64,000 nucleotides of DNA, from the IMG/VR virus record IMGVR_UViG_3300035698_015309. The stretch is one strand, 5' to 3'. This document shows, one piece after another, positions 1,865 through 19,236 of the stretch. The position numbers and the translations under genes were made by a program. Position 1 is the stretch's first letter. Every line of letters begins with the position of its first letter. The notes below the pieces were generated by a model that was not told where the DNA came from, did not search any database, and saw nothing but the letters and a program-made list of their open reading frames with translations. This DNA is from a virus (Duplodnaviria; Heunggongvirae; Uroviricota; Caudoviricetes).

Positions 1865-2977
1865 TTACCCAGAACCGGCATAAACCGGCAGAGGATTTGG
1901 TAGTAAACGGAGACCATAGACTCCCGCCAACCCAAGAAGCTCCAAGTTCTTGGCAGCATTGAGGTCGGCATGTTCGGAATGCCCACAATGCACACACTTG
2001 AACTTGTCCCCTCTCCGATTTCGCCTGTCCCATCTACGGCATACTCGACAGAACTGCGAGGTTTTCCAGGGGTTCTTCCGTTCCAGCCGGACCCCCTCTT
2101 CCTCACATTTCCGTTCAATGAGATCCGCCGTATAGGCATAAAGCCAATGAGACAACCGCCTATTAAACCGACGAGGAAACTTTCCCCGTGTACCACGTTT
2201 CACATGTTTCAGGTCCTCGATGCACAGCTCTTGGACACCACTCAAATCAAGAGACTTGAGGGCGTGACCGACCACCGATTTGATATAGGTTCTTGTGTGC
2301 TTCCTGCGACGTCCAAATTGTTGGATAAGGGCATATGGTTCATCTGCGATCTGTTGGCCATCAGAGAAGACAAGACCAGCCTTGTAGTTGGAATCCATCC
2401 CGAGGATTTTTCCGATCTTCCGCTTGGGGGCTTTGGGCTTCTCCAGCAAGAGGTCTATGTAGAGATCGTCGTTTCTACGACCGAGCCGAATAGACTTGCT
2501 GATCTTCCAGCCGTTACTGAGCATCTTGTTGATGTGTGCGGTGCTCTTTGTAGGAATGACCACTCGGGGGGCTCCAGAGCCGATCAGTTTGATAGCGTAA
2601 TCGAATGCCCCATCGAACTCCGAAACGGTTACGAAATGCGAGCACAGTGTGGCTGTGTGTCTACGAAGACTAGGTTTCCTGTGCTTGTTGGCGTGGGCAG
2701 ATCGGACCGTTTCCTTCGCTTGTTTGGCAAGGGCTTGAGCAAGTCGGGTCGTGATTTTGAACCTGTCTCGTCCTCGATGTACTGTAGGGAGGTCTGCGAG
2801 AGTAGCCGAGAAGTCCTTTCGTTGCCAAAAGAGATCTACAAAGTACTGCGTGGTGTCGTGGCACAATCGCAGAAAATCTACAAGTTCGTCCCGCTTTCCT
2901 GTGTTCAGATCGTTGATGAAGATGCGACTGGAGCGTCGCATAGTAGGGACAGAGAAGGTCTTGTGCGCCTTACGCAT
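1865..2977 (-). CDS. tnpB: TnpB RNA-guided nuclease (370 aa)
   Basis: RuvC-I LGMDSN, RuvC-II IEDLKHV, Zn finger CRVC/CVHC, RuvC-III HADLNAAKNL. Confidence 0.92.
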   Translation of the reverse strand: MRKAHKTFSVPTMRRSSRIFINDLNTGKRDELVDFLRLCHDTTQYFVDLFWQRKDFSATLADLPTVHRGRDRFKITTRLAQALAKQAKETVRSAHANKHRKPSLRRHTATLCSHFVTVSEFDGAFDYAIKLIGSGAPRVVIPTKSTAHINKMLSNGWKISKSIRLGRRNDDLYIDLLLEKPKAPKRKIGKILGMDSNYKAGLVFSDGQQIADEPYALIQQFGRRRKHTRTYIKSVVGHALKSLDLSGVQELCIEDLKHVKRGTRGKFPRRFNRRLSHWLYAYTADLIERKCEEEGVRLERKNPWKTSQFCRVCRRWDRRNRRGDKFKCVHCGHSEHADLNAAKNLELLGLAGVYGLRLLPNPLPVYAGSG

Positions 2978-3586
2978 CTACTTTTTCTTCTCCAGCGCTT
3001 GGATTGCTGCTTCTGTCTTCTTCCTGCCTCGTCGCTGCCCGTAAAGACGAGCACAGAAGGACGTTATGATGGCCACGAGGTCTTCCATAAGATCGGAGGT
3101 CTTGTCTTCAGCGACGTTGACGACTTCGATCCGAAACGGCGCAAGGGCTACGAACCAGCGGAAACCGAATCGAGTGAGCCTGTCTTTGTGCTCTACAAGA
3201 AGCACATCGAAATCCTTAGCAGCCAGAAGCCGGTGGAGTTTTCGTCGCTCGTCGTTAATGCCAGAGCCGATTTCTGTGACCACCTGAACAATTTGCCAGC
3301 CTTTTGCTGTAGCATACCGACGGAGCCCATCAACTTGCGAAGCCAGTGCTGCCTTGTTCTCAGATGAAGATTCCCTTGCGTAGATAGCGCACCGACACTC
3401 TGTCGTCTTCGGGGTCACTCCTGCCTGTTCTTCGACCCACCATGTGGGGATAAACCAGCGTCCAGTGTCGGACCGGATAGCAGGTATTTCTCCCTTGGCG
3501 GCTCTTCTACGAAGAGCTACTCCTTGAAGACCAAGGAGTTTGGCTGCCACCGACGCACGAACTCGAAGTGGTTTTTCATCCCTCAT
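2978..3586 (-). CDS. tnpA: IS607 serine transposase
   Basis: N-terminal MerR-like HTH, AIYARESS catalytic motif, EHKDRLTRFG, C-terminal DLVAIITSFCARLYG. Confidence 0.92.
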   Translation of the reverse strand: MRDEKPLRVRASVAAKLLGLQGVALRRRAAKGEIPAIRSDTGRWFIPTWWVEEQAGVTPKTTECRCAIYARESSSENKAALASQVDGLRRYATAKGWQIVQVVTEIGSGINDERRKLHRLLAAKDFDVLLVEHKDRLTRFGFRWFVALAPFRIEVVNVAEDKTSDLMEDLVAIITSFCARLYGQRRGRKKTEAAIQALEKKK

Positions 3587-6136: not shown

Positions 6137-6450
6137 CAATGAAAAGTCACGAAACGATCATCGTCGAACAAACGGTCTCGGACGGGGACTCGGGCTGGAT
6201 TCACGGGATGATGACTACCGTCATCCGTTTCATTGTGCCCGAGTTGGACAACCTCGCAATCACCGTTCACAAGGACAGGCTGTACATACTCACCGGCTTC
6301 GACCTGAAGGAGGCACCCGACACCAAGGTCGTGGGGCACTGCCAGCTTCCCGCCGAGACGGTCAACAAAGCCCTGGCCTATGCTGATGCCAAAAAGGAAA
6401 TCATCAAAATCCTACAGCCCCTTGTGGATGAGCACATCACCGTTCCTTAA
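6133..6450 (+). CDS. hypothetical protein, 3' end interrupted by IS607-type element
   Basis: Stop lies inside the element right end; removing the element gives ...HITLQGRRGERLHARVNV*. Confidence 0.55.
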   Translation: MTMKSHETIIVEQTVSDGDSGWIHGMMTTVIRFIVPELDNLAITVHKDRLYILTGFDLKEAPDTKVVGHCQLPAETVNKALAYADAKKEIIKILQPLVDEHITVP

Positions 6451-7878
6451 AACCTGCTGGAATGTAACAGGCATCAAGTTTGAAGCTGTGCCGCTGCCAG
6501 ACGAATCTGATCCAACGGTAGTAAACCTCCGGCCCAACGGTAAGGGCTCGATTGACGACCGCTCTAATCGCCCGAATCCCAAGGAACTGGTCCGCTTAAC
6601 ACGGAATGGCTCTCTCAGCACTCGTTTTACGCCTCTCGGATGATCGTTAGTACCGATGTGTTCGTCTCCAGAACGTCTGAGCACACCAGAACTTCCCACC
6701 CAATCAGCATGAGCTTTCCTGCCGCACGAGCGGCAATGGAACCTTGTTGAATTTCGGTTTCCTCGATGAACATAACCACAAGAAGGACACTCCTGCGAAG
6801 TATAAGCTGGGTTCACCTTCTCAACCGGAGTCTTCCTTTCCAAGTTGACTTGTAACGCCCTGTAAGCAAACCTCTTTTGACCCCGACAACCTCGAAGATC
6901 AAGATCCTCAACCACGAACACTGTCTTAGGATGACGAACGATAAGGGTGTTTACTACACGACCCGTTTCTGTTTTGATCAACCCACTCAGTTTGCTCTCA
7001 AGGTGGTCCAACTTTGGACTGTTGTCCTTTAAGTCCTGTCGTTGGCGATTTGCTCTGAGATTCCTGACACGAGCGTAGAGTTTATCGAACTTGAGTTTGA
7101 CGTGTTCACCATAGGTCACGCCATCTGATGTAGCTGCGAGCACATTCAAACCAACGTCCACACCCAACTTAGGCCAACCTTCCTGTGCTTCAGGAACAAT
7201 CCATTCGTCCTTGCTGACCGCCTCAAAACGCCAAAAGCCTCGCTTGGTCTTGCGGGCTGAAACACCTTTGCTAACTTGGTCAGCCTGCTGGATGTAAGGA
7301 TTCCCAACGAGAGGTAACCAGACGGACTTGCGAGGTTCTAACGAAGACACCCTCAGCCAGAAATCCCCGAGAGGAGCTTTAGTTGTGTCTTCCAATCGAG
7401 CCGTCATTTCTGACAACATCATGGGCAGGTTGTCCCTTACGATAGGCTTATTGCCTCCGTATGTGTCCAGCAGAACGTGGTAGGCGTCGAGGTGGTCTTG
7501 GGTAATGAATTTCCATGGCTTACTGATGGATTTTAATCCAATGGTGTAGAGTGCTTTGGCGTCTTGTTCGGTAAGGGTACCATCGTGTTTGAGATTGGTG
7601 ATAGTCGGCTTCAATTTGCGAGCGTAAGTGGCCTTGGCCCAAGCGCTCACGATCTGGATGGCGTGGTCTCGTGCGATCTTTTCGATTTGGGATGTAAGGT
7701 TGGTAGCTCGTGGAAAGAACGTCTGTTTGGCGGACTTCGGGAGATTGTGGGTTCGCTGGTCGAGCATTGTTTGTACGCAGATACGGACATACTTGACGTA
7801 GACTTTGTGCAGGGCTTCCAACTTATCGATTTTGGACGGGTTGGTGTCCTTGTGAAGTCGAAAGATGCGACACTTCAT
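6412..7878 (-). CDS. tnpB: TnpB nuclease (close paralog of 35849..37264)
   Basis: LGVDVG, VVEDLDL, CPSCG/CRSCG, HADWVG; ORF reads through the right end. Confidence 0.92.
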   Translation of the reverse strand: MKCRIFRLHKDTNPSKIDKLEALHKVYVKYVRICVQTMLDQRTHNLPKSAKQTFFPRATNLTSQIEKIARDHAIQIVSAWAKATYARKLKPTITNLKHDGTLTEQDAKALYTIGLKSISKPWKFITQDHLDAYHVLLDTYGGNKPIVRDNLPMMLSEMTARLEDTTKAPLGDFWLRVSSLEPRKSVWLPLVGNPYIQQADQVSKGVSARKTKRGFWRFEAVSKDEWIVPEAQEGWPKLGVDVGLNVLAATSDGVTYGEHVKLKFDKLYARVRNLRANRQRQDLKDNSPKLDHLESKLSGLIKTETGRVVNTLIVRHPKTVFVVEDLDLRGCRGQKRFAYRALQVNLERKTPVEKVNPAYTSQECPSCGYVHRGNRNSTRFHCRSCGRKAHADWVGSSGVLRRSGDEHIGTNDHPRGVKRVLREPFRVKRTSSLGFGRLERSSIEPLPLGRRFTTVGSDSSGSGTASNLMPVTFQQVLRNGDVLIHKGL

Positions 7879-8789: not shown

Positions 8790-9478
8790 CCGTTCTCCTA
8801 AACTGACCCAATCGAGGACACAGGCCCCCCATCAGGGTTAGGTTCCTGCTTCATTGAGGATAGTTTCACTTGGTTCAGATGAACCAAGCCAGCGCTTTCC
8901 TCTCCACAGGCTGTAACCGTCGAACTGACGGCCAAATTTCTTAAATTACAAGCTGCGTTCTCATCACGATCCTGTATGTGTCCACAGGAATCACAATGGA
9001 AAACACGATCCCTCAAGGTTAATTTGTGCTTAACCTCACCACAAACCGAACACATCTTGGACGAGGGGAACCATCGATCTGCCTCTACGATTGTCCCACC
9101 GTGCCAAGCTACCTTGTACTTCAGACAACGAAGGAAGTTTCCCATCGTTGCGTCAGATAAACTTCGAGCCAGACAATGGTTTTTCATCATCCCTGACACA
9201 TTCAAGGACTCGATCCCAACAATCACACACCGTTTGGCTATCGCAGTGGTGGCCTTATGAAGCGCATCCTTACGAACGCAGGAAATTCGATAATGTTGGC
9301 GGGCGAGACGATGCTTTGCTTTCCCCCGATTCCTCGATCCCTTCTTCTTTCTGCATACGTGAATGACCCAACCCAGGCCTTCCTGCCTGGTAGCTCCCTG
9401 AGAGCTGGTCGACAATTCACCATCAGAAAAAACATTGCAACACTGGCCACCCTGATCGGTGTAAAACTGAAATATCAA
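8790..9478 (-). pseudogene. tnpB: 5'-truncated tnpB with intact right end (second IS family)
   Basis: RKKKGSRNR, GIESLNV, DRWFPSSKMCSVCG, DRDENAACNL; N-terminal half and RuvC-I are missing or degenerate; right end ...GGAGAACGG at 8790. Confidence 0.85.
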
Positions 9479-9531: not shown

Positions 9532-10140
9532 ATGACCACCGACGACGGCAAGCTCACGTCCGAGCAACGGGCCAACTGGAAACGGACCCTGAGCGCCTCT
9601 TTCGGGCTACCCTCCTGGTTCCTCACGGACAAGGATGTCCAGGAGTTCCGGGACAAGACCCAGCGGGAAGCTGATCAGAAGGCCCTGGAACGAGCCGCAA
9701 AGGAGGCCCTCACTCGCCAGGAAGCCTCCTGTACGGCATACAAAGTCGTCGTCAGTACTCTCCGGGGTGACTTAGAATCCTTTTCCCAGTACTCAGCCTG
9801 GGCCTACAGCTACACCCCCGAGAAATGGATGAGCGCATTCCCTGGCTCAGGTCTTTTCGTGTTCGCCACCCAGGACCAAGCTATGAACTTTGCCAGCGCA
9901 TCCATTTTCCGAAGTCAGGTTTGGGGGTGCGAGTGTGAAGGCCCAATGGCAACGCCGCCTATGGTCCTGGGCATGCTGTATTCCGATGTGCCCCTTCAGC
10001 GCTTCTGGTCCAATCACCATCTGGGGCTCCCGCAGCCGCTGGAACCCCACCTCATCAAACCCCCGGAGGGGACGCTGTTGTTCAAACGGGTCAAATTGAT
10101 CAAGCGGCTCACCCCCCAGGCCAAACAAGGTCCCTTCTAA
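9532..10140 (+). CDS. hypothetical protein, AYKVV paralog family with N-terminal extension
   Basis: TAYKVV...GSGLFVF...QVWGCE...GTLLFKRVKL. Confidence 0.7.
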   Translation: MTTDDGKLTSEQRANWKRTLSASFGLPSWFLTDKDVQEFRDKTQREADQKALERAAKEALTRQEASCTAYKVVVSTLRGDLESFSQYSAWAYSYTPEKWMSAFPGSGLFVFATQDQAMNFASASIFRSQVWGCECEGPMATPPMVLGMLYSDVPLQRFWSNHHLGLPQPLEPHLIKPPEGTLLFKRVKLIKRLTPQAKQGPF

Positions 10141-10695
10141 CGCCCGGAGAGCCTCCCACAACTTGATCTCCGTGACCTTCCTGTCCCAGCAGTCAGGCAA
10201 CTCTACCCCCCCCCCGATCTGCAGCTCGTCCGTGGCGATACCATAGAGATCGTCATCGTTCTGAAGACACCCGACCCCACACTGCAGGCTCCAAACGGTT
10301 CCTTCACTACCATCTCTCTTGGGGGCTTCCAACGTCTCAAAGGCGATGACCATCAGGTCACAACCCGACTGGACCTTCATCAGGTCGTCCACCTTGGACC
10401 GGAGGAGAGTTCCGACTGAGGCCACAATGTTCCGGGGGCTGGGGAACACCTTGTCCGTCACAATGATGGTGAACATCGGAAGGAGTACCCGCTTGTTCGG
10501 CTCTGGGATCTGAATCACCCCCACACCGTCATCCCCGATGGCCCACGCTGGAGTGCCCTGTACCTTCTCAAGGATCGGGACGGCTACACCGCTTGCCCGG
10601 ATGTTCACGTACTTCATGGACGCCCGTGGGGCGGACTCGACTCGGGGAGGGGTATCGAACCCTGGAGGAAATACAGCATTCGGTGGGTAACGCAT
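9847..10695 (-). CDS. hypothetical protein (likely start 10617)
   Basis: Long ORF; 3' end overlaps the convergent gene. Confidence 0.45.
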   Translation of the reverse strand: MRYPPNAVFPPGFDTPPRVESAPRASMKYVNIRASGVAVPILEKVQGTPAWAIGDDGVGVIQIPEPNKRVLLPMFTIIVTDKVFPSPRNIVASVGTLLRSKVDDLMKVQSGCDLMVIAFETLEAPKRDGSEGTVWSLQCGVGCLQNDDDLYGIATDELQIGGGVELPDCWDRKVTEIKLWEALRALEGTLFGLGGEPLDQFDPFEQQRPLRGFDEVGFQRLREPQMVIGPEALKGHIGIQHAQDHRRRCHWAFTLAPPNLTSENGCAGKVHSLVLGGEHEKT

Positions 10696-10741
10696 TGGGG
10701 TCTCCTTTTGTCAGATCACTCTACCCCAGTCGGAACTGTTG

Positions 10742-10767
10742 GATCATCTGACACCGTCAGGGAGTAG
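10742..10767 (+). promoter_or_regulatory. class-A phage promoter
   Basis: GATCATCT-N12-GAGTAG upstream of 10788. Confidence 0.8.
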
Positions 10768-10787: not shown

Positions 10788-13379
10788 ATGCACGAAAAGA
10801 TCCGCAAGTCCTTGATCCGCAAACTCATCCCCGATTTTCGCAACTGGCTCTACACGAAGGCCCGACAAGGCAAGGGACTGGCCGAGAAGACCATCACGTA
10901 CTACCTGCTCAACCTGGATCGCCTCCTGAAGGTGCTCCCGGACCCGTTCACGATCGATGACGTGAACAAGGTAGTGGCGGACGACTGGGCCAGCCAAACG
11001 AGCAAGAACAAGCAGACGCATATGGCGTCCGTTTGGAGCAACCTCCAGGTGTTCCGTCTCACCCTGCTCCTGGCCAAGGACACGCCCCCGGCCATCTGGG
11101 GTGTGTCCCCCAAGACCGTCATCAACCGGCTCCCCGAGTACAGGATTTGGATGGAGGCGGGGGGGCTGCTCAAGCACGAAACGGTAGAGGAGTACCTGCG
11201 AATCGCACACATCGTCCTGGGCTGTGTGACCAACGTCACGACCGAGAACCTGAAGGAGGCCCTGACCGGGCATCCTCTCCGTTACCGTTATGCCACACTC
11301 GGGCAGTCTGGGCTGCTGACATGGTGGAAGAACGTCACGGTAACCCCGGACACGGCAAGGCTCCCCGCCAACATCCCGACCGTCACCTGGGACATGCCCG
11401 AAGACTTCTCCGTCCCACTTGCCGCCATCCCGGCGTACAGGGAATGGCTGGTCAAGGAACAAAACTTCAAGTCCAGTTCCGTTCGGGTCTGGGTCAGTGC
11501 TGCGGAACGCATGATCCACAAGGGCACCCCGATGAACATCAACACCCTCGTGCGTGCGACCTACATCAACTACTACGCCTGGATCGGCCCCTCCGGTTTC
11601 GTGCCCTTCTGGAAGCAGTATAACAAGCCGTCCGAGGTCACGGAACCGGATCCGATCCCTGCAAAGCCCAAGACGCCCAACAAGAACAAGGAGACCCCCT
11701 TGAAGTATTGTCACCTGTTCCCGACCGAAGCCCAGGTAGCCCAGTCCCTGTCTGAGTACCCCGATTGGGTGGTGCGCCGGGGTTGCACCCCCAACACGGC
11801 GGAGGTTTACCGCAAGGCCCTCCGGCAGTTGCTGAAGACCGTCACGTCCTGGGACCAGGAAACCGTAAATAAGGCGCTCTCAGGAATGAAACAGACGCCC
11901 AACTATGCCTGGAACGGAAACTACGGCTTCCTGGCCTTCTGGAACGAACGGAACGCCCTTCCGATCAGCCACCACCAGATCCAGTCGTTGACTCCCGCCT
12001 TCCGCTCCTGGATGAGGGAACAGGGTCACACCGAGCGGGTGGCTGGCGACTACGCCAAGGCAGTCCTTGGGCTGTCCCTTAAGGTCAAGTCCTTCAGCCC
12101 GACCGACCTCGCCCCGGTGCTCAACAAGTCCAAGCACTACAGGAACGCCTGGAGAAAGTTCATGATCTTCTACCAGGCCCAGGACATCTCGGTCGAGGCC
12201 CCCACGAAGGCCACGCCGGTCCCCGAGCCTGAGCCGGTAACGGACACGCCCACCGACATCAGGAAGCCCACCAAGGCCGACGTCGAGGCCCTCAAGGGCG
12301 CATTTGAACTCTGGCTGAGCACAAGCCGCAAGCTCAGTCGGAAGTCGACCGGCAACCGTATGAGTGGACTCCGGCAGATCATCAAGCACTCCACCTCACC
12401 CACTTTGGATGACATCTACTCCGTGCTGAACATCCCAATGTCCAACTTCTACCGGGACGCTTGGCTCGGGGGCTCCGGCTTCATGCACTTCTGGACTGAA
12501 TACAGGGACATTCAGACGCCCCTCATCGTCATGACGCCCCCGGTGGAGACGCCTGAACCCGCCGAGGCGCTCTCCAAGCCCCTGACCTGGGAGGGGGGCC
12601 TCAAGACCGTGGCCAAGTCCCTCGACTCCAACTATGATCCCAAGGCAAATGCCAAGGAAATGGTCGACAGCATCATCAAGGAATGGTCGGAAGACAATGA
12701 CTTGTTGAATGTCCTGATGACCCAGGCAGGTATCGAAACACCCCAGGACAGCACAATGGGCAAATGTTTCCAGCTTCTCCTGGATGCAGCGGAGGCCCCC
12801 AAACCCGAGACCACCCCGCAGTCCGATGTGTATGAACAGAGTTTCCGCACCCTGATCAAGACCATGTTCCACGGCAGCGCCCTCACTGACCCTACTGAAC
12901 TGACTGAGTCCTTCCGTGACGGTTGGGCAACGGATTGGGCTAGACTCAACAACTGGATGGACGAAGCGGGAATCAACAGGGCGGATCCCCTCATCACACT
13001 CAGGGAGGCCATCCGCCTCCTCAAGGCCGACTGGGACTTCAAGTCTGTACCCCAGGACAACCCCTACAAGGACGCCCTGGTGCAGATCAGGAAGACCCTC
13101 AACATCACCGGGGTCACCGACCCCCACGAGGTAGCGGAAAGTATCCGCAACACCTGGATGGTTCTCGAAACGCTGCTGACCGAGCTTCTGCACAAGGCCG
13201 GATGGTCCAAGGGGCAGACCCTCACCTTCCCCGAAGGACTTCGGTACCTCAAAAGGAACTGGCCTGACAGGGGTACCCCGGCCAACCTGACCCAGGAGAT
13301 CCTCGCCGCACGTTGGCGGGAGACCAAGACCGGAACCGACCCCAAGGTGCTGGATGCACTCCTCGCCAAGCTCACATGA
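10788..13379 (+). CDS. 863-aa protein of six tandem integrase core-binding (SAM-like) modules plus three C-terminal helical repeats
   Basis: Repeats such as FRNWL..GLAEKTITYY, YREWL..NFKSSSVRVW and FELWL..KLSRKSTGNR; most end W.G..GF..FW; no tyrosine-recombinase catalytic motif. Confidence 0.65.
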   Translation: MHEKIRKSLIRKLIPDFRNWLYTKARQGKGLAEKTITYYLLNLDRLLKVLPDPFTIDDVNKVVADDWASQTSKNKQTHMASVWSNLQVFRLTLLLAKDTPPAIWGVSPKTVINRLPEYRIWMEAGGLLKHETVEEYLRIAHIVLGCVTNVTTENLKEALTGHPLRYRYATLGQSGLLTWWKNVTVTPDTARLPANIPTVTWDMPEDFSVPLAAIPAYREWLVKEQNFKSSSVRVWVSAAERMIHKGTPMNINTLVRATYINYYAWIGPSGFVPFWKQYNKPSEVTEPDPIPAKPKTPNKNKETPLKYCHLFPTEAQVAQSLSEYPDWVVRRGCTPNTAEVYRKALRQLLKTVTSWDQETVNKALSGMKQTPNYAWNGNYGFLAFWNERNALPISHHQIQSLTPAFRSWMREQGHTERVAGDYAKAVLGLSLKVKSFSPTDLAPVLNKSKHYRNAWRKFMIFYQAQDISVEAPTKATPVPEPEPVTDTPTDIRKPTKADVEALKGAFELWLSTSRKLSRKSTGNRMSGLRQIIKHSTSPTLDDIYSVLNIPMSNFYRDAWLGGSGFMHFWTEYRDIQTPLIVMTPPVETPEPAEALSKPLTWEGGLKTVAKSLDSNYDPKANAKEMVDSIIKEWSEDNDLLNVLMTQAGIETPQDSTMGKCFQLLLDAAEAPKPETTPQSDVYEQSFRTLIKTMFHGSALTDPTELTESFRDGWATDWARLNNWMDEAGINRADPLITLREAIRLLKADWDFKSVPQDNPYKDALVQIRKTLNITGVTDPHEVAESIRNTWMVLETLLTELLHKAGWSKGQTLTFPEGLRYLKRNWPDRGTPANLTQEILAARWRETKTGTDPKVLDALLAKLT

Positions 13380-13393
13380 CAGATTCAACACTG

Positions 13394-13419
13394 GATCATC
13401 TGCTGCCGCCAGGGAGTAG
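13394..13419 (+). promoter_or_regulatory. class-A phage promoter
   Basis: GATCATCT-N12-GAGTAG upstream of 13442. Confidence 0.8.
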
Positions 13420-13441
13420 ATGATCCAGTAGGAGGAACACG

Positions 13442-15139
13442 ATGAAACACCCGACCAGGAAACAAGTCAGGGCCTTCCAGCCCGAGTACGCTGAGTGGCT
13501 CCAGCAGATGGGCGTGGCCCCAAGGCGGATCAGAGCGAACACCCTGTGCCTTGACATGCTGCTCCGAGAAACACACTCGCCCTTTAACGAAAAAACCGTG
13601 GCCCTCGCTGTCATACAAACGACAGGCATAGGCCTTCAAGAAGCTTGGGCCACGTCCCAATTCAGCTTCCTGGCCTTCTGGAAGGACAAGACCGGACCCA
13701 CTCCGGGTGACTTCCAGTCCCACAAGACCCGATTTTACAGTTGGTTACAACACGGGGACGACCCCAACGTACAGCGTTATAGCGAGCGGGTCACCACCGA
13801 TACAATGTATGCCCTTACGGGGCTGTCCCACAAGGGCAAATCGTTCCGGTCCTGTGACCTGGAAGAGACCCTCAACCGTTCCGGGCACTACAGGTTGGCC
13901 TGGAAGCGTTTCCTGAAGTTCTGGGACACCATCGACCAGCCCCCACTGGAACCCCCGGCAACGTCCCAACCGGCACCTCCGGCCCCCGTGAAGGCCCCGG
14001 AGCAGGCGGACACCTCCCTCCCTCCTCTGACCCGGTACAACGTCCTGAAAAACCTGACACGGTACAACAGGTGGCTGCAGGTGGCTGACGGGTTCGACAC
14101 CACCAACCTCCCCGCACGGCAATGGGCCATGGCGAGGATCCTTCGCCTGTGTCACTCCGAAAATATGGATGACCTCCCCCAGATCCTTGTAGAAAACGGC
14201 GACCTCCACGCTGTGTGGCACGGCATCGATTTCGGCTTCCTCACCTTCTGGGCGTTTCAGTATGGACCCAAGGACGCCTCCGAGGGGTCCACGGACCAGC
14301 CGAAACCCCCCACCATGACCGAAGCCCTGGATGTCCTGGACGACTACGAGCGGTGGCTGAGGGTCTGCCACGGGTGGCGTCACAGCGCTGTAAGGGGACG
14401 ATATCGGACCATGATGCTGGGCCTCAGCCGGTGCCAATCCGAAGACCTGTCCGACCTGTACCAGTTTACGAAAACGGACGACGCCTTCCACACGGCGTGG
14501 CACGGCATCGATTTCGGCTTCCTCACCTACTGGAATCTCCGGCACGAGAAGGTCCAGATCCCGAAGACTCCCGTTACACCAATGGGCGTGTGGGAACAGT
14601 GCCTGCGCTCCGTGTTTCAAGCACTCAGCCCTGGCACCTTCCCCCCTAGCGACCCCCGCAAGTTGGCCGACACCATCAACAAGACCTGGGGGGAGACCCA
14701 CGAACTGCTGTCCAAACTGCTCACCAAGGCAGGCGTCACGACCAAGATCATGACGGCCACCGACGCCCTCCATGCCCTTCTGGTGGTATGGCCGGAACCC
14801 GAGCATCCCGAGACCGAGCCTACCCCGAGCGACGTGGCACACGACAGGGAGAACGAATCTACCAGGATGCCCACCAAGATTGATGTCAAAAGGGCGGTGG
14901 GGGACTATCAGGCATGGCTGAAGGACATCCAGGGACTGAATACCACGGCAATCTGGGAATGCACCGTGGATCTCCAAGGGAGCGTCTGCGCCTGCTGCTC
15001 CCACGATCTGGAAGATCTCCCCAGGATCAAGAGCGAACACAAGCCGTTCAAGGAAGCCTGGGACGGCCCCAATGGCTTCATGGCCTTCTGGAATGATCGC
15101 CGCCGGACCCCAAAAGCGATCAAGAAAACGCCCCCGTAG
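13442..15139 (+). CDS. 565-aa paralog with five of the same modules and one helical repeat
   Basis: YAEWL, FYSWL, YNRWL, YERWL and YQAWL starts; WHGIDFGFLT(F/Y)W occurs twice. Confidence 0.65.
   Translation: MKHPTRKQVRAFQPEYAEWLQQMGVAPRRIRANTLCLDMLLRETHSPFNEKTVALAVIQTTGIGLQEAWATSQFSFLAFWKDKTGPTPGDFQSHKTRFYSWLQHGDDPNVQRYSERVTTDTMYALTGLSHKGKSFRSCDLEETLNRSGHYRLAWKRFLKFWDTIDQPPLEPPATSQPAPPAPVKAPEQADTSLPPLTRYNVLKNLTRYNRWLQVADGFDTTNLPARQWAMARILRLCHSENMDDLPQILVENGDLHAVWHGIDFGFLTFWAFQYGPKDASEGSTDQPKPPTMTEALDVLDDYERWLRVCHGWRHSAVRGRYRTMMLGLSRCQSEDLSDLYQFTKTDDAFHTAWHGIDFGFLTYWNLRHEKVQIPKTPVTPMGVWEQCLRSVFQALSPGTFPPSDPRKLADTINKTWGETHELLSKLLTKAGVTTKIMTATDALHALLVVWPEPEHPETEPTPSDVAHDRENESTRMPTKIDVKRAVGDYQAWLKDIQGLNTTAIWECTVDLQGSVCACCSHDLEDLPRIKSEHKPFKEAWDGPNGFMAFWNDRRRTPKAIKKTPP
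14215..14528 (+). repeat. 32-bp identical direct repeat inside the repeat protein
   Basis: GTGGCACGGCATCGATTTCGGCTTCCTCACCT at 14215-14246 and 14497-14528. Confidence 0.95.
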
Positions 15140-15609: not shown

Positions 15610-16081
15610 GCCCCCCACCTAAGCCCCTTCACCCCAATAAGGATACACAACCCGCAGAAGGACCAGAAACGCCCACACAAGGCCACGTGGGATCCCCTAA
15701 AAGCATATACAGCCAGTGTACCCAATCCCCTAGAACGTAAGACCACATGACAACAACCACAAAGTGATCGGAAATAGCCACTGAAGGCCACATGGGGGTT
15801 TATAGGGACGTATCCCTGACAATTCCAGCGATAGCCGGAACCGTCCCTGATAGGTCGGGCAATCGTTATAGAGGAAAAACCGGCAAAGTCCCTCCTTTTC
15901 ACACCGTTTTCTTGACACCCCAACGCCCAAGGAGTAGGAAAGTTGGGAGGCCCCAGACTGGGGATCGCTGAGAATGGCAGCGTCAGTCAGGTCGGGGGCG
16001 TAACGCTAGGTGGCCCGAATGTCAAACCGGCACGAAGAAAGAGATTGCTTGACTCGAATTGAAATCTAGATTCTGTAGGAG

Positions 16082-16987
16082 TTGCTTATGCCACAGATTC
16101 TCTACACCCGGTCGAATGATGGTTGTGATGAAGTTCGAGTACGGGAGACGGAGGGTGGCCGTATCTATACACTAGAGCGGCCTACAGGTGCTGAGACGTT
16201 CGACTCGGCACGCAAGCTACTCATCATGGTAACGGGTCATCCTGAGGCTCGTCATTGGACGCTGGACCGTTACTTCCGGACGGGGCGTCACACCCCTAGA
16301 GGCAGGAGTGCTTCGTCACCGATCCTAGAAGCTCTGGGTCCGGGTGGTTGGGCTATTGATCCGTCGAGCTTGTCAACTCCTTCGGGCATTGTTTCGGTAC
16401 GTCGGTTGGGTGACCCACAGAATCTGGGTATTGACTTGGCGGTGCGTGGCCGTGAGGTAGCGAAGCTCCTCTACAAGGGGTTCTCTGGGAAGATGCGAGC
16501 GGCTCGTTATGAGCCGGAGGATGTTCTTCAGGAAGTTTACAAGGGGATACTCATCCGCAACAAGGGCAAGTGCCCCTTCGATGCTCGGGTGGCGTCCTTT
16601 GGTCATTACGTTCACATGGTCTGTCGGTGTGTGTTATCGAATTACCACAGGCGGTCGCAACGTTATCGTAGTGTGATGCAGGCGGGGTTGCCTGGTTGGA
16701 CTGAGGATGGGCTGACAACGGTAGATGCGGGGGATGACCGTGCGTTGGTGGGCGTGGTGACGGATCCGTCTGATGTATCTGAGGAGTCGTTGATGCTGGA
16801 CCTGATGGATTCTTTACGTCCCCATCCTCAACGTGAGTTAGCGATACAGGCCATGCCTTTGCTGAAAAGAGGCAAGGGCATGGCCTGGGAATATGCTGGT
16901 GCTGTCTTGGATGAGTCCCCGGCTACGATGTCCAAGGCATACGCTTACCTTAGGCGTGAGATTCATCATTACCGGGACGCTCACTAG
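16082..16987 (+). CDS. sigma70/ECF-like RNA polymerase sigma factor with N-terminal extension
   Basis: Region-2-like EDVLQEVY...FDARVASFGHYVHMVCRCVLSNYHR; C-terminal HTH AGAVLDESPATMSK. Confidence 0.75.
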   Translation: MLMPQILYTRSNDGCDEVRVRETEGGRIYTLERPTGAETFDSARKLLIMVTGHPEARHWTLDRYFRTGRHTPRGRSASSPILEALGPGGWAIDPSSLSTPSGIVSVRRLGDPQNLGIDLAVRGREVAKLLYKGFSGKMRAARYEPEDVLQEVYKGILIRNKGKCPFDARVASFGHYVHMVCRCVLSNYHRRSQRYRSVMQAGLPGWTEDGLTTVDAGDDRALVGVVTDPSDVSEESLMLDLMDSLRPHPQRELAIQAMPLLKRGKGMAWEYAGAVLDESPATMSKAYAYLRREIHHYRDAH

Positions 16988-17106
16988 AGCACTGGAAAAG
17001 TCCAGTACTTTCGTTGTAATCTGCACAAAAAGATCTGGGCAAAGAGTACTGGAAAGTACTTGACTGTGGGGTGCTGACCTAGATTCTGTGGGTTATCCCG
17101 GTGGGG

Positions 17107-17132
17107 GATCATCTCAGCGACCCACAGAGTAG
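17107..17132 (+). promoter_or_regulatory. class-A phage promoter
   Basis: GATCATCT-N12-GAGTAG with no nearby downstream ORF. Confidence 0.7.
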
Positions 17133-17283
17133 TCTAGGTGAAGGCAAACGATTCGTCGGTGTCTGGGTCTGCTCCGTAAAGAAATAGAACGTCACGGCCC
17201 ACGGGTATGGCCCACTTTCGGCTTGGCAGAGCTTCCGTCTCCCAGGTAAACTGAGAGCAACGTTATGGGTGTGTCCCTGTAGA

Positions 17284-18381
17284 CCCACAGAATCTAGGTG
17301 TGACGTCCTTTGGGGGCTGTGTTGGGGTAGACTGGTGGGGGCATGGGATTTTGGCGTCGTTAGTGGGTGACCCCTGCTTTTCGGGGGCACACAAAATGAC
17401 ATGTCGGAGCATGGTGGGAGCCTTTTTTTTGCGGTGGCTCATGTGGGGGCGTTTCTGAGTAGTTACTGTGTGTGATTTTGCTGTGGGGGTTTGTCTATGG
17501 GGATTGCGTCACCTGATGATTACATCTCGACTTTAGAGGCGGCAACGCTTTATGGGACTGACCGTGCGGCTATGCGTCGTGAGGCAATTCGTCGGGGCTG
17601 GGACTCCGTTCGTTTCTTTAGCAACATGCTGGCTTATGACTTGGATGACTTTCTGGATTGGCATATGGGGCTTCAGAAGCCGGATCGTCGTCCTTGTTTG
17701 GGTTGTGGCAAACCTTCCATGGTTGACCGTTACTATTGTGACCGCTGTGCTCAGCTTCGTAAGGGGTGTGGTGTGATTTGCAAGGAGGCTGCTGGCGTGG
17801 CGGGACTTCCTTTTTCGAGTGGTGACTGGTAGATGCTTTGTCCAGTACTTTCGGACATTCTGTGGGAGGCTTCTTTGGGGAAAGCAAGCAAAACAGTCGC
17901 TGGTGTGATCAGGAAAAGATCTGGGATTGTCTTGACAGGAGTACTGAGGCTGTGTGGTCTAGATTCTGTGGTTGGCCTTCTGTGGGAGTCCAGTACTTTC
18001 GCTGTGTGGGGTGCAGAAATAAACCGTACTGACAAAGTACTATAGTACTTGACTGGGGCAATACTCTAGATTCTGTGGGTCGTCCCTTCGGGGTGGTACA
18101 AAAGGCTCCCTACATGGGTCGCCAACTCATTTACGGTTAGTAACGACGTAGAGTTGGGTTTTCGTTTTACGGGAGGGTCTCAGGAGACTAATGGTGAGCC
18201 TTTTCCTGTCGTGCTGAGATCGTCACACCCATATGCTACCGCCTCACAGACGCCTGCAGGTTTTCATTTCTCATATAACATCTTTGGGGATGGATCACAA
18301 AAGGAAAAGGTTCTTTGGCCCCACAGAATCTAGGGTGACGCCCTTTGGGGGCTGTCTTAGGGTAGACTGGTGGGAGCATGG
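17284..18381 (+). repeat. about 62-bp imperfect direct repeat (17284-17346 and 18320-18381)
   Basis: CCCACAGAATCTAGG..TGACG.CCTTTGGGGGCTGT...GGGTAGACTGGTGGG.GCATGG occurs twice. Confidence 0.9.
17491..17832 (+). CDS. excisionase-like HTH protein with C-terminal Zn finger
   Basis: YISTLEAATLYGTDRAAMRR; CLGC...CDRC. Confidence 0.55.
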   Translation: MSMGIASPDDYISTLEAATLYGTDRAAMRREAIRRGWDSVRFFSNMLAYDLDDFLDWHMGLQKPDRRPCLGCGKPSMVDRYYCDRCAQLRKGCGVICKEAAGVAGLPFSSGDW

Positions 18382-18391
18382 AGGGAATGAG

Positions 18392-18598
18392 ATGAAGATT
18401 CCAGTGATGACACCGCTGACGGTAGTGAAGGGTAACGACGGGAAGAGCGTAAGCCAGTTTTACTGTTACGAGAGGATTGGTGGTGCGGTCTTTAAGCTCC
18501 CTGAGGGTCTGACTCCAGACCTTGAGGTTCCTTGGACGTCGGAGGAGAAGGCTGGGCTGCCTTGCTTCCTAAAGGGGGACAGGTCAAACATCACCTGA
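18392..18598 (+). CDS. hypothetical protein
   Basis: GGAGGG RBS before ATG 18392. Confidence 0.4.
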   Translation: MKIPVMTPLTVVKGNDGKSVSQFYCYERIGGAVFKLPEGLTPDLEVPWTSEEKAGLPCFLKGDRSNIT

Positions 18599-18837
18599 TC
18601 AGCTACAGTGACCTTGAGGTGGGGATGCCTGTGCTGGTGCCTACACTGTGGGGGTACACCCTTGGGGTGGTCACGGAACTGACTGAGGATGGTGGTTACG
18701 CTCGGGACTATGGCCACACTGAGGAGAAGCCGGGCAATCAGTACCTTCTAAGTTTTGCTCGGGATGGGTGGGACTGCTGGTCGTGTGGTTGTGCTATGAA
18801 CCTGAGGGCTCTCAAGCGTCTGGGGGTAACCCGGTAG
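18532..18837 (+). CDS. hypothetical protein
   Basis: ORF with DLEVGMPVLVP and CWSCGC; start uncertain. Confidence 0.4.
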   Translation: MDVGGEGWAALLPKGGQVKHHLISYSDLEVGMPVLVPTLWGYTLGVVTELTEDGGYARDYGHTEEKPGNQYLLSFARDGWDCWSCGCAMNLRALKRLGVTR

Positions 18838-18845
18838 CCTGTGGG

Positions 18846-18870
18846 GACCATCTGCTGACCCACAGAGTAG
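18846..18870 (+). promoter_or_regulatory. class-A promoter variant
   Basis: GACCATCT-N11-GAGTAG. Confidence 0.55.
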
Positions 18871-19236
18871 CTGAAGTGGGGAGAGTGGGGTGTCTTCCTC
18901 TAGATTCTGTGGCCTCCCTTTTGGGGCCTGTTCTTTTACTCTCCCTACAGGGTGTCCCAACTCATTCTGAGGTAGTGTTTATGCGGGTCTCCGAAAACGG
19001 GTGTGAAGCGGACGTTGGGCGTTTCATCTTGGTGAAAACGTCTGAGACGAGAGGGTGGGTGGTCACACTGTCCTACTTTGCGACACCTCTGTCGTGTTGT
19101 GGGGCGGGCTGCCCGAGCAATTGTCACTTAGAATCTCAGATGACCTGACGACTCATCCAACTGTGGCAGCCTGGTGGGTGTTACGTTGGCGTGGGTGGCG
19201 GTCTTACGTTGTCGTAAGCTAAGAGGGGGCTGCCAG

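Follow-up and report, generated by a model that had tools for sequence, protein, structure and literature searches.

Two adjoining phage genes encode tandem recombinase core-binding-like domains without a catalytic domain

We analysed a window of 64,000 nucleotides, which is part of the 188,175-bp IMG/VR virus record IMGVR_UViG_3300035698_015309 (Caudoviricetes; CheckV completeness estimate 36%). Two adjoining genes in this window, P0001 and P0002, encode proteins built from six and five tandem units. From its sequence and its modelled fold, the unit is very probably a tyrosine-recombinase core-binding (CB, SAM-like) domain, by descent as well as by structure. Neither protein retains the domain that makes recombinases enzymes. 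Largely by analogy with other CB-only proteins, we lean towards reading P0001 and P0002 as non-enzymatic, multivalent DNA binders with a regulatory or organizing role, in which a conserved C-terminal tail may dock to a common partner. The parts of the two genes are as follows (nucleotide positions in the window; amino-acid (aa) positions in the protein).

10788..13379, + strand: P0001 gene, 863 aa, with six CB-like units, three helical repeats and the conserved C-terminal tail
10809..11051, + strand: P0001 unit 1, aa 8-88; the sole unit over the Pfam Phage_int_SAM_5 cut-off (26.4 versus 22.3 bits)
11112..11342, + strand: P0001 unit 2, aa 109-185
11409..11627, + strand: P0001 unit 3, aa 208-280
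11730..11957, + strand: P0001 unit 4, aa 315-390; only five residues separate it from unit 5
11973..12188, + strand: P0001 unit 5, aa 396-467; lacks the G..GF motif ('KF' subtype) and shares 43% identity with P0002 unit 2
12276..12509, + strand: P0001 unit 6, aa 497-574
12579..13271, + strand: P0001, three helical repeats of ~72 aa, aa 598-670, 679-752 and 757-828
13275..13376, + strand: P0001, conserved C-terminal tail, consensus L..ALAARY.E..G...S.VDDLL..L
13442..15139, + strand: P0002 gene, 565 aa, with four CB-like units, one helical repeat and a fifth unit; without the C-terminal tail
13460..13696, + strand: P0002 unit 1, aa 7-85
13706..13939, + strand: P0002 unit 2, aa 89-166
14036..14266, + strand: P0002 unit 3, aa 199-275; holds the 32-bp repeat copy at 14215-14246
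14318..14548, + strand: P0002 unit 4, aa 293-369; holds the 32-bp repeat copy at 14497-14528
14582..14809, + strand: P0002, helical repeat, aa 381-456
14879..15106, + strand: P0002 unit 5, aa 480-555; the unit modelled by AlphaFold2 (AF2; predicted local distance difference test, pLDDT, 95.4)

Both open reading frames (ORFs) are intact, and an AGGAGG ribosome-binding site stands before each. P0002 matches the C-terminal two-thirds of P0001 (E 3e-29), which identifies the two as tandem paralogs. An initial annotation of this DNA called their products giant proteins, a term too strong for 863 and 565 aa, although the architecture that it described was reproduced. Eleven units of ~75 aa were delimited by motif scanning and alignment, and a hidden Markov model (HMM) built from those 11 finds exactly six domains in P0001 and five in P0002 (i-E 1e-21 to 1e-28), the numbers given in that annotation. 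The same HMM also picks up four units on which it was not trained, three in P0003 and one in P0004 (i-E 4e-6 to 2e-14), two further paralogs that lie outside the window in the same genome and bring the total to 15 units in four genes. Since untrained units are found elsewhere in the genome, the repeat is not a chance pattern.

The units are highly divergent, with pairwise identities of 10-43% (mean 21%). Identity is highest between P0001 unit 5 and P0002 unit 2 (43%) and between P0002 unit 3 and unit 4 (38%), and it is this latter pair that keeps the exact 32-bp DNA duplication already pointed out in the initial annotation, within a 56-nt pair of 88% identity. The Pro/Thr/Glu-rich linkers between units are evident on direct reading of the translations. 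The second helical repeat of ~72 aa likewise occurs four times as described, with three copies in P0001 (aa 598-828) and one in P0002. Together with the conserved tail, the helical repeats make up one third of P0001. This C-terminal third (aa 590-863) was modelled by AF2 as all-helical with a pLDDT of only 52.9 and was unusable for a fold search. MAFFT alignment hinted that the tail might duplicate the end of the helical repeat in shortened form, a resemblance too weak to claim.

We turn to the identity of the unit, the first half of which had been likened to the N-terminal SAM-like domain of tyrosine recombinases. That likeness is borne out. P0001 as a whole reaches the Pfam threshold for PF13102 (Phage_int_SAM_5) via unit 1 only, and its scores for SAM_4 and SAM_1 fall slightly under the Pfam cut-offs; scanned singly, at most two of the 15 units match Pfam, weakly and below threshold (best E 0.025). 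Searching 1.84 billion representative proteins with a 15-unit profile gave 51 matches, with ~12 true family members among them after beta-repeat giants were dropped. The rejected proteins, 2-3 kaa in length (for example P0006 and P0018), owe their match to a 'YAWSGPSGF' beta-repeat motif alone and are spurious as relatives. Next below the family members come four Pfam-confirmed tyrosine recombinases (P0029, P0031, P0040 and P0048), each matched through its N-terminal SAM-like domain (E 1e-4 to 1e-5), and a further PF00589 protein is matched by the unit profile at 5e-7. Alignment by hhalign of a 31-unit profile with the SAM domains of the recovered integrases gave a probability of 97% across columns 3-36, that is, helices A and B.

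The structural match spans the whole unit. The AF2 model of P0002 unit 5, computed from the 31-unit alignment, consists of five helices (pLDDT 95.4). In an exhaustive VIA-align comparison of this model with 48,161 PDB representatives, the N-domain of XerD comes out on top (Z 7.9, 72/76 residues, 2.5 Å), followed by Brujita Int, XerA, the N-domain of a Haloarcula integrase, the lambda Int CB domain, IntI4 and many integrase N-domain structures solved by nuclear magnetic resonance. Recombinase CB domains account for ~17 of the 26 top structural matches. Some results pull the other way. Sequence similarity to integrases is confined to helices A and B, and Z scores of 5-8 lie in the range that the tool flags as possibly generic helical arrangement. 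Foldseek comparison of the unit model with PDB and BFVD returned no match at E<=0.001, and a profile search of PDB sequences found nothing significant; only exhaustive structural alignment recovered the CB fold. The CB assignment is nevertheless secure because one family dominates the matches, coverage is full-length and the sequence evidence is independent.

The high-confidence model also bears on whether these genes are alive at all. The units are highly diverged and a paralog beyond the window carries a frameshift in this record, as might be expected of decaying, non-functional repeat-rich ORFs left over from integrase genes. We find such decay scarcely credible. A pLDDT of 95 together with a hydrophobic core conserved across 31 units from several phages indicates purifying selection on the fold; both ORFs, of 863 and 565 aa, are intact, and a ribosome-binding site and a promoter motif accompany each; and an identical P0001 protein is present in 44 blocks of the collection (assemblies of different samples).

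The absence of a catalytic domain, as first reported for these proteins, stands. No match to PF00589 was obtained in P0001 or P0002 even at E<=10, and their non-unit regions consist of helical repeats and linkers. Nor was there a PF00589 match anywhere in the 188-kb record (36% of the genome), while 14 of 14 control genomes give one. Lacking a recombinase catalytic domain, P0001 and P0002 cannot cut or join DNA. CB domains stripped of catalytic residues could serve, as the initial annotation suggested, as dominant-negative decoys, occupying core sites or heterodimerizing with the tyrosine recombinases of the host, a satellite or a rival phage and thereby blocking integration or excision, and the accessory, fast-evolving pattern of this family (see below) is typical of conflict genes. 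We judge this very improbable, however, since no tyrosine recombinase was found in the 188-kb record, the nearby mobile elements are of IS607/TnpB types, which use serine recombinases, and the units, at a mean identity of 21%, are too divergent to mimic one recombinase.

How the arrays relate to known CB proteins is most readily appreciated by comparison with XerD-type recombinases (PDB 1A0P N-domain; PF02899, PF13102 and PF13495). Their CB domain has the same helical fold and shares the helix A/B signature Y..WL...G.s..T...Y...L with the phage unit. Whereas XerD-type recombinases combine one CB domain with a catalytic domain, the phage proteins carry six and five CB copies and none of the catalytic domain. 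Past helix B there is no detectable sequence similarity, and the C-terminal helix of the phage unit has a family-specific aromatic motif, AW.G..GF..FW.

The initial annotation knew of no described protein with this architecture, a claim at odds with the literature. A CB-like unit called SU1 occurs in one to six tandem copies without a recombinase catalytic domain (PMC13667924, PLoS Biology, October 2026). SU1 is found in 13 of 33 rhizobial Nop effectors, as well as in HsvG/HsvB of Pantoea agglomerans and in HopBL1; Bel2-5 has five units, and the experimentally mapped DNA-binding region of HsvG/HsvB corresponds to a three-unit CB-like array (PMC13667924). Compared by published description, SU1 and phage arrays have in common a range of one to six units, no catalytic domain, extreme divergence and conservation of the core only, and the best structural matches of SU1, XerD 1A0P and IntI4 2A3V, are also among the best matches of the phage unit. 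The differences lie in context and accessory parts. SU1 proteins are secreted type III effectors that act in plant nuclei and carry ULP, OTU or BPN domains, nuclear localization signals and activation domains, whereas P0001 and P0002 show none of these features, Pfam detecting no ULP, OTU or BPN domain in either, and their genes sit in a phage genome. Phage arrays have instead their own helical repeat and C-terminal tail. P0001 and P0002 are thus the phage form of a design already published for type III effectors, new in their viral context, helical repeat and tail; our literature search found no report of tandem CB arrays in phages.

CB-like proteins without a catalytic domain are also known from gene regulation. 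FliZ of E. coli and Salmonella is a CB-like regulator that lacks the catalytic domain, as the phage arrays do, and binds DNA via its CB-like helix (PMC3367168). It has a single CB-like region in 183 aa and known targets, whereas the phage arrays have multiple units. A hhalign comparison of the phage unit with FliZ gave a weak match (35.7% probability), in register with the CB helix region at FliZ 92-132. Phages themselves encode catalytically inactive tyrosine-recombinase derivatives, namely SPbeta MrpR (PDB 8A0A, titled SPbeta master regulator) and phi3T SroF (PDB 9RD5, SroF bound to DNA), and their CB domains are among the structural matches of the unit (Z 3.9-4.7). MrpR and SroF keep a catalytic-type second domain and a single CB domain, however, whereas the phage arrays keep only the CB domain, multiplied.

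These parallels suggest how P0001 and P0002 might work. Each protein would be a string of independently folded five-helix CB domains on flexible Pro/Thr/Glu linkers, and each unit, as in FliZ and the HsvG/HsvB SU1 arrays, may lay its helix B and helix D face into the major groove of DNA. Several weak, mutually divergent units occupying several sites at once would give avid binding, and such an avid binder could regulate or organize the DNA of the phage or its host. The conserved C-terminal tail, which P0001 has and P0002 does not, would be a peptide for docking to, or assembly with, a shared partner. A complex prediction with two copies of the tail scored 0.16, against a mark of 0.42, and gives no evidence either way.

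Charge and conservation bear on DNA binding. Each of the six units of P0001 is basic (net +2 to +6, isoelectric point (pI) 8.9-10.1), with Arg/Lys enriched on helix B (positions 23, 26, 30, 33 and 34) and at the start of helix D (position 58). Strict conservation across 31 units is limited to the hydrophobic core; in recombinases and FliZ, it is the variable residues of helix 2 that read DNA (PMC3367168). Uniform DNA binding is harder to square with units 3-5 of P0002, which are acidic (net -2 to -3), and with the P0003 units, which are neutral, so that not every unit resembles a DNA binder. Moreover, DNA binding is something that we infer, with no repeated cognate DNA site tied to the proteins, and the search for a catalytic partner, negative as it was, covers the 188-kb record only, 36% of the genome.

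The same data can be read as exaptation of the CB fold for protein-protein interaction, in which case the arrays would serve as flexible scaffolds or adaptors and recruit proteins of the phage or its host, such as factors for transcription or replication bound via the tail. Conservation of hydrophobic core residues only, several neutral or acidic units, and a tail and helical repeats that take up a third of P0001 would all fit, and CB domains also form protomer-protomer contacts in recombinases (PMC13667924). We regard a scaffold as rather unlikely, because all P0001 units are basic, their Arg/Lys residues are concentrated on the helix with which recombinases and FliZ touch DNA, and the known CB-only proteins (FliZ and HsvG/HsvB) bind DNA.

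Huge genomes require compaction, and many weakly basic domains on flexible linkers, with a tail common to otherwise different paralogs, might suit non-specific structural proteins that coat DNA. Nucleoid-like or packaged in the capsid, these would condense or protect a 528-kb genome, the tail being a capsid or assembly signal. Variable copy number and strain-specific cassettes are unusual for a core structural role, however, and the pI of P0002 and P0003 is near neutral, both of which make DNA coating distinctly improbable in our estimation. Multivalent DNA binding in a regulatory or organizing role is the reading that we retain.

The genome size just cited is that of the Ace Lake (Antarctica) 'huge phage', to which P0001 and P0002 belong. 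JGI contig Ga0208769_1000001 (528,260 bp), described under that name by Panwar et al. 2020 (PMC7416419), carries an identical P0001, as does an ENA contig of 521,674 bp. Of the paralogs outside the window, P0003 (478 aa, three units) lies ~1 kb before its start and P0004 (one unit) ~21 kb before it. The fourth paralog (G000:C1:160084-162383, - strand; L006:949-1749:-) comprises a single CB-like unit, an extended helical stretch and the conserved tail. In this record a G-run frameshift (…IIGRLLG|KTKTEV…) breaks it into two ORFs that overlap, whereas its homolog P0017 reads through. The frameshift could be an assembly error or real.

Few true relatives were found, in this metagenome or ones like it (P0005, P0009, P0010, P0016, P0017, P0032, P0038, P0042 and P0047). 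Beyond this genome, the family numbers ~10 clusters in related phages. A comparison of repeat number across relatives, proposed in the initial annotation, shows that it is variable, at one to four units each. The C-terminal tail of ~30 aa is kept in nine members, including P0001 and P0003 and excluding P0002; the minimal members P0047 and P0009 are one unit plus tail and four units plus tail, respectively. Searches of 50,697 phage records with the locus (blastn) and P0001 (tblastn) gave no match, and IMG/VR scans with P0001 and P0003 gave no relatives. Two uncharacterized proteins of a metagenome/genome protein collection, P0013 and P0030, have tandem Phage_int_SAM-like domains without a catalytic domain, one with an N-terminal zinc ribbon and five repeats and the other with a C-terminal HTH_23. 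Arrays of this kind are therefore not confined to phages and type III effectors.

Close relatives differ in gene copy number as well as unit number, and another relative has two array genes side by side. A related contig (L012:4227-5871 against window position ~38655) is 94% identical over 4.2 kb and then diverges exactly at a two-box promoter, beyond which it carries a different cassette that includes the four-unit gene P0009, missing there in this record. Judging from such comparisons, promoter-led cassettes appear to be swapped between strains, and the family looks to be one of small, lineage-specific, fast-evolving accessory cassettes.

The two-box motif recurs at the array genes themselves.

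10741..10767, + strand: two-box promoter-like motif GGATCATC-N13-GAGTAG, just upstream of P0001
13393..13419, + strand: two-box promoter-like motif GGATCATC-N13-GAGTAG, just upstream of P0002

There are 12 copies of this motif in the window, compared with ~0.8 in shuffled sequences, and 55 in the 188-kb record. The initial annotation gave each gene its own promoter; the motif is indeed enriched and stands upstream of both, and it is from the motif that promoter function is proposed. As both genes carry this phage motif, they are probably expressed within a phage-directed programme. The copy before P0002 falls within a perfect 10-bp inverted repeat (13392-13427; TGGATCATCT…AGATGATCCA), which could form a 5' hairpin if transcribed; the P0001 copy pairs imperfectly.

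One kilobase downstream of the arrays, the gene at 16082-16987 (+ strand, 301 aa) is the neighbour that had been called a sigma factor. The gene is there, although its match to extracytoplasmic function (ECF) sigma region 2 is weak (TIGR02937, E 0.035). Its C-terminus is region-4-like by eye, it has no Pfam or PDB match, and it lacks a preceding two-box promoter motif. A homolog with 54% identity is encoded at L011:5265-6191 in a related phage, 3.5 kb downstream of P0010, and this repeated proximity offers supporting context for a regulatory role. In E. coli, fliZ adjoins the sigma-factor gene fliA, a parallel to the array and sigma-like genes that is suggestive only. No Xis-like helix-turn-helix protein, also placed alongside by the initial annotation, was detected in any neighbour.

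A bolder version of regulatory DNA binding would be a modular DNA-reading system, in which each CB unit reads its own short subsite and arrays of one to six units spell out composite targets in the manner of TAL effector repeats. The tail would then dock all members to one phage machine, such as the divergent sigma factor next door or an RNA polymerase, and cassette swaps would re-programme the loci that are switched. We consider this system a long shot.

Candidate DNA sites were sought near the arrays. The motif AGATTCTGT(G/A)G has 13 copies in the 188-kb record, eight of which lie on both strands within 2.8 kb (16068-18902). Copies often sit within ccT-AGATTCTGTGG-gtcaccc, several have TTGACT 12-14 nt before them, and P0003 has a further copy 76 nt upstream, on the opposite strand. 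The clustering of AGATTCTGTGG is real, and we rejected it as a set of cognate sites for want of a tie to the CB-array proteins; the related locus L011 has one exact copy. An origin-binding role was also discarded, because a GC-skew dip at 8-16 kb (change at ~16 kb) is local to the C-rich P0001 and P0002 genes, with no genome-wide switch.

Array genes also keep company with an ORFan family, P0055-like, which is found at 9847-10695 (- strand) beside P0001, at G000:C1:144116-144655 (+ strand) beside P0003 and at L011:3760-4203 (- strand) near P0010. The family shares the core RV.LP.F…W.L..G.G…LPD.W, without a match in Pfam, PHROG, NCBIfam or PDB. The P0055-like protein could be a functional partner of the CB arrays. 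The mobile elements on the same side of the locus are as follows.

1865-3586: resolvase and TnpB pair, IS607-like
6412-7878, - strand: TnpB-like gene (Cas12f1-like_TNB / OrfB_IS605 pair), just upstream of the locus
8798-9478, - strand: second TnpB-like gene of the pair, a 226-aa C-terminal fragment omitted from public gene calls

If the arrays bind DNA, P0001 and P0002 would be the first viral case of recombinase CB domains multiplied without a catalytic domain. The type III effector design would then extend to huge phages, which would suggest that multivalent DNA readers have repeatedly been built from the CB fold. With 15 very different units spread over four genes, this one phage provides a natural panel on how CB domains encode DNA specificity, and the conserved tail points to a common partner. 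For annotation, the consequence is that such proteins should not carry the label 'integrase'.

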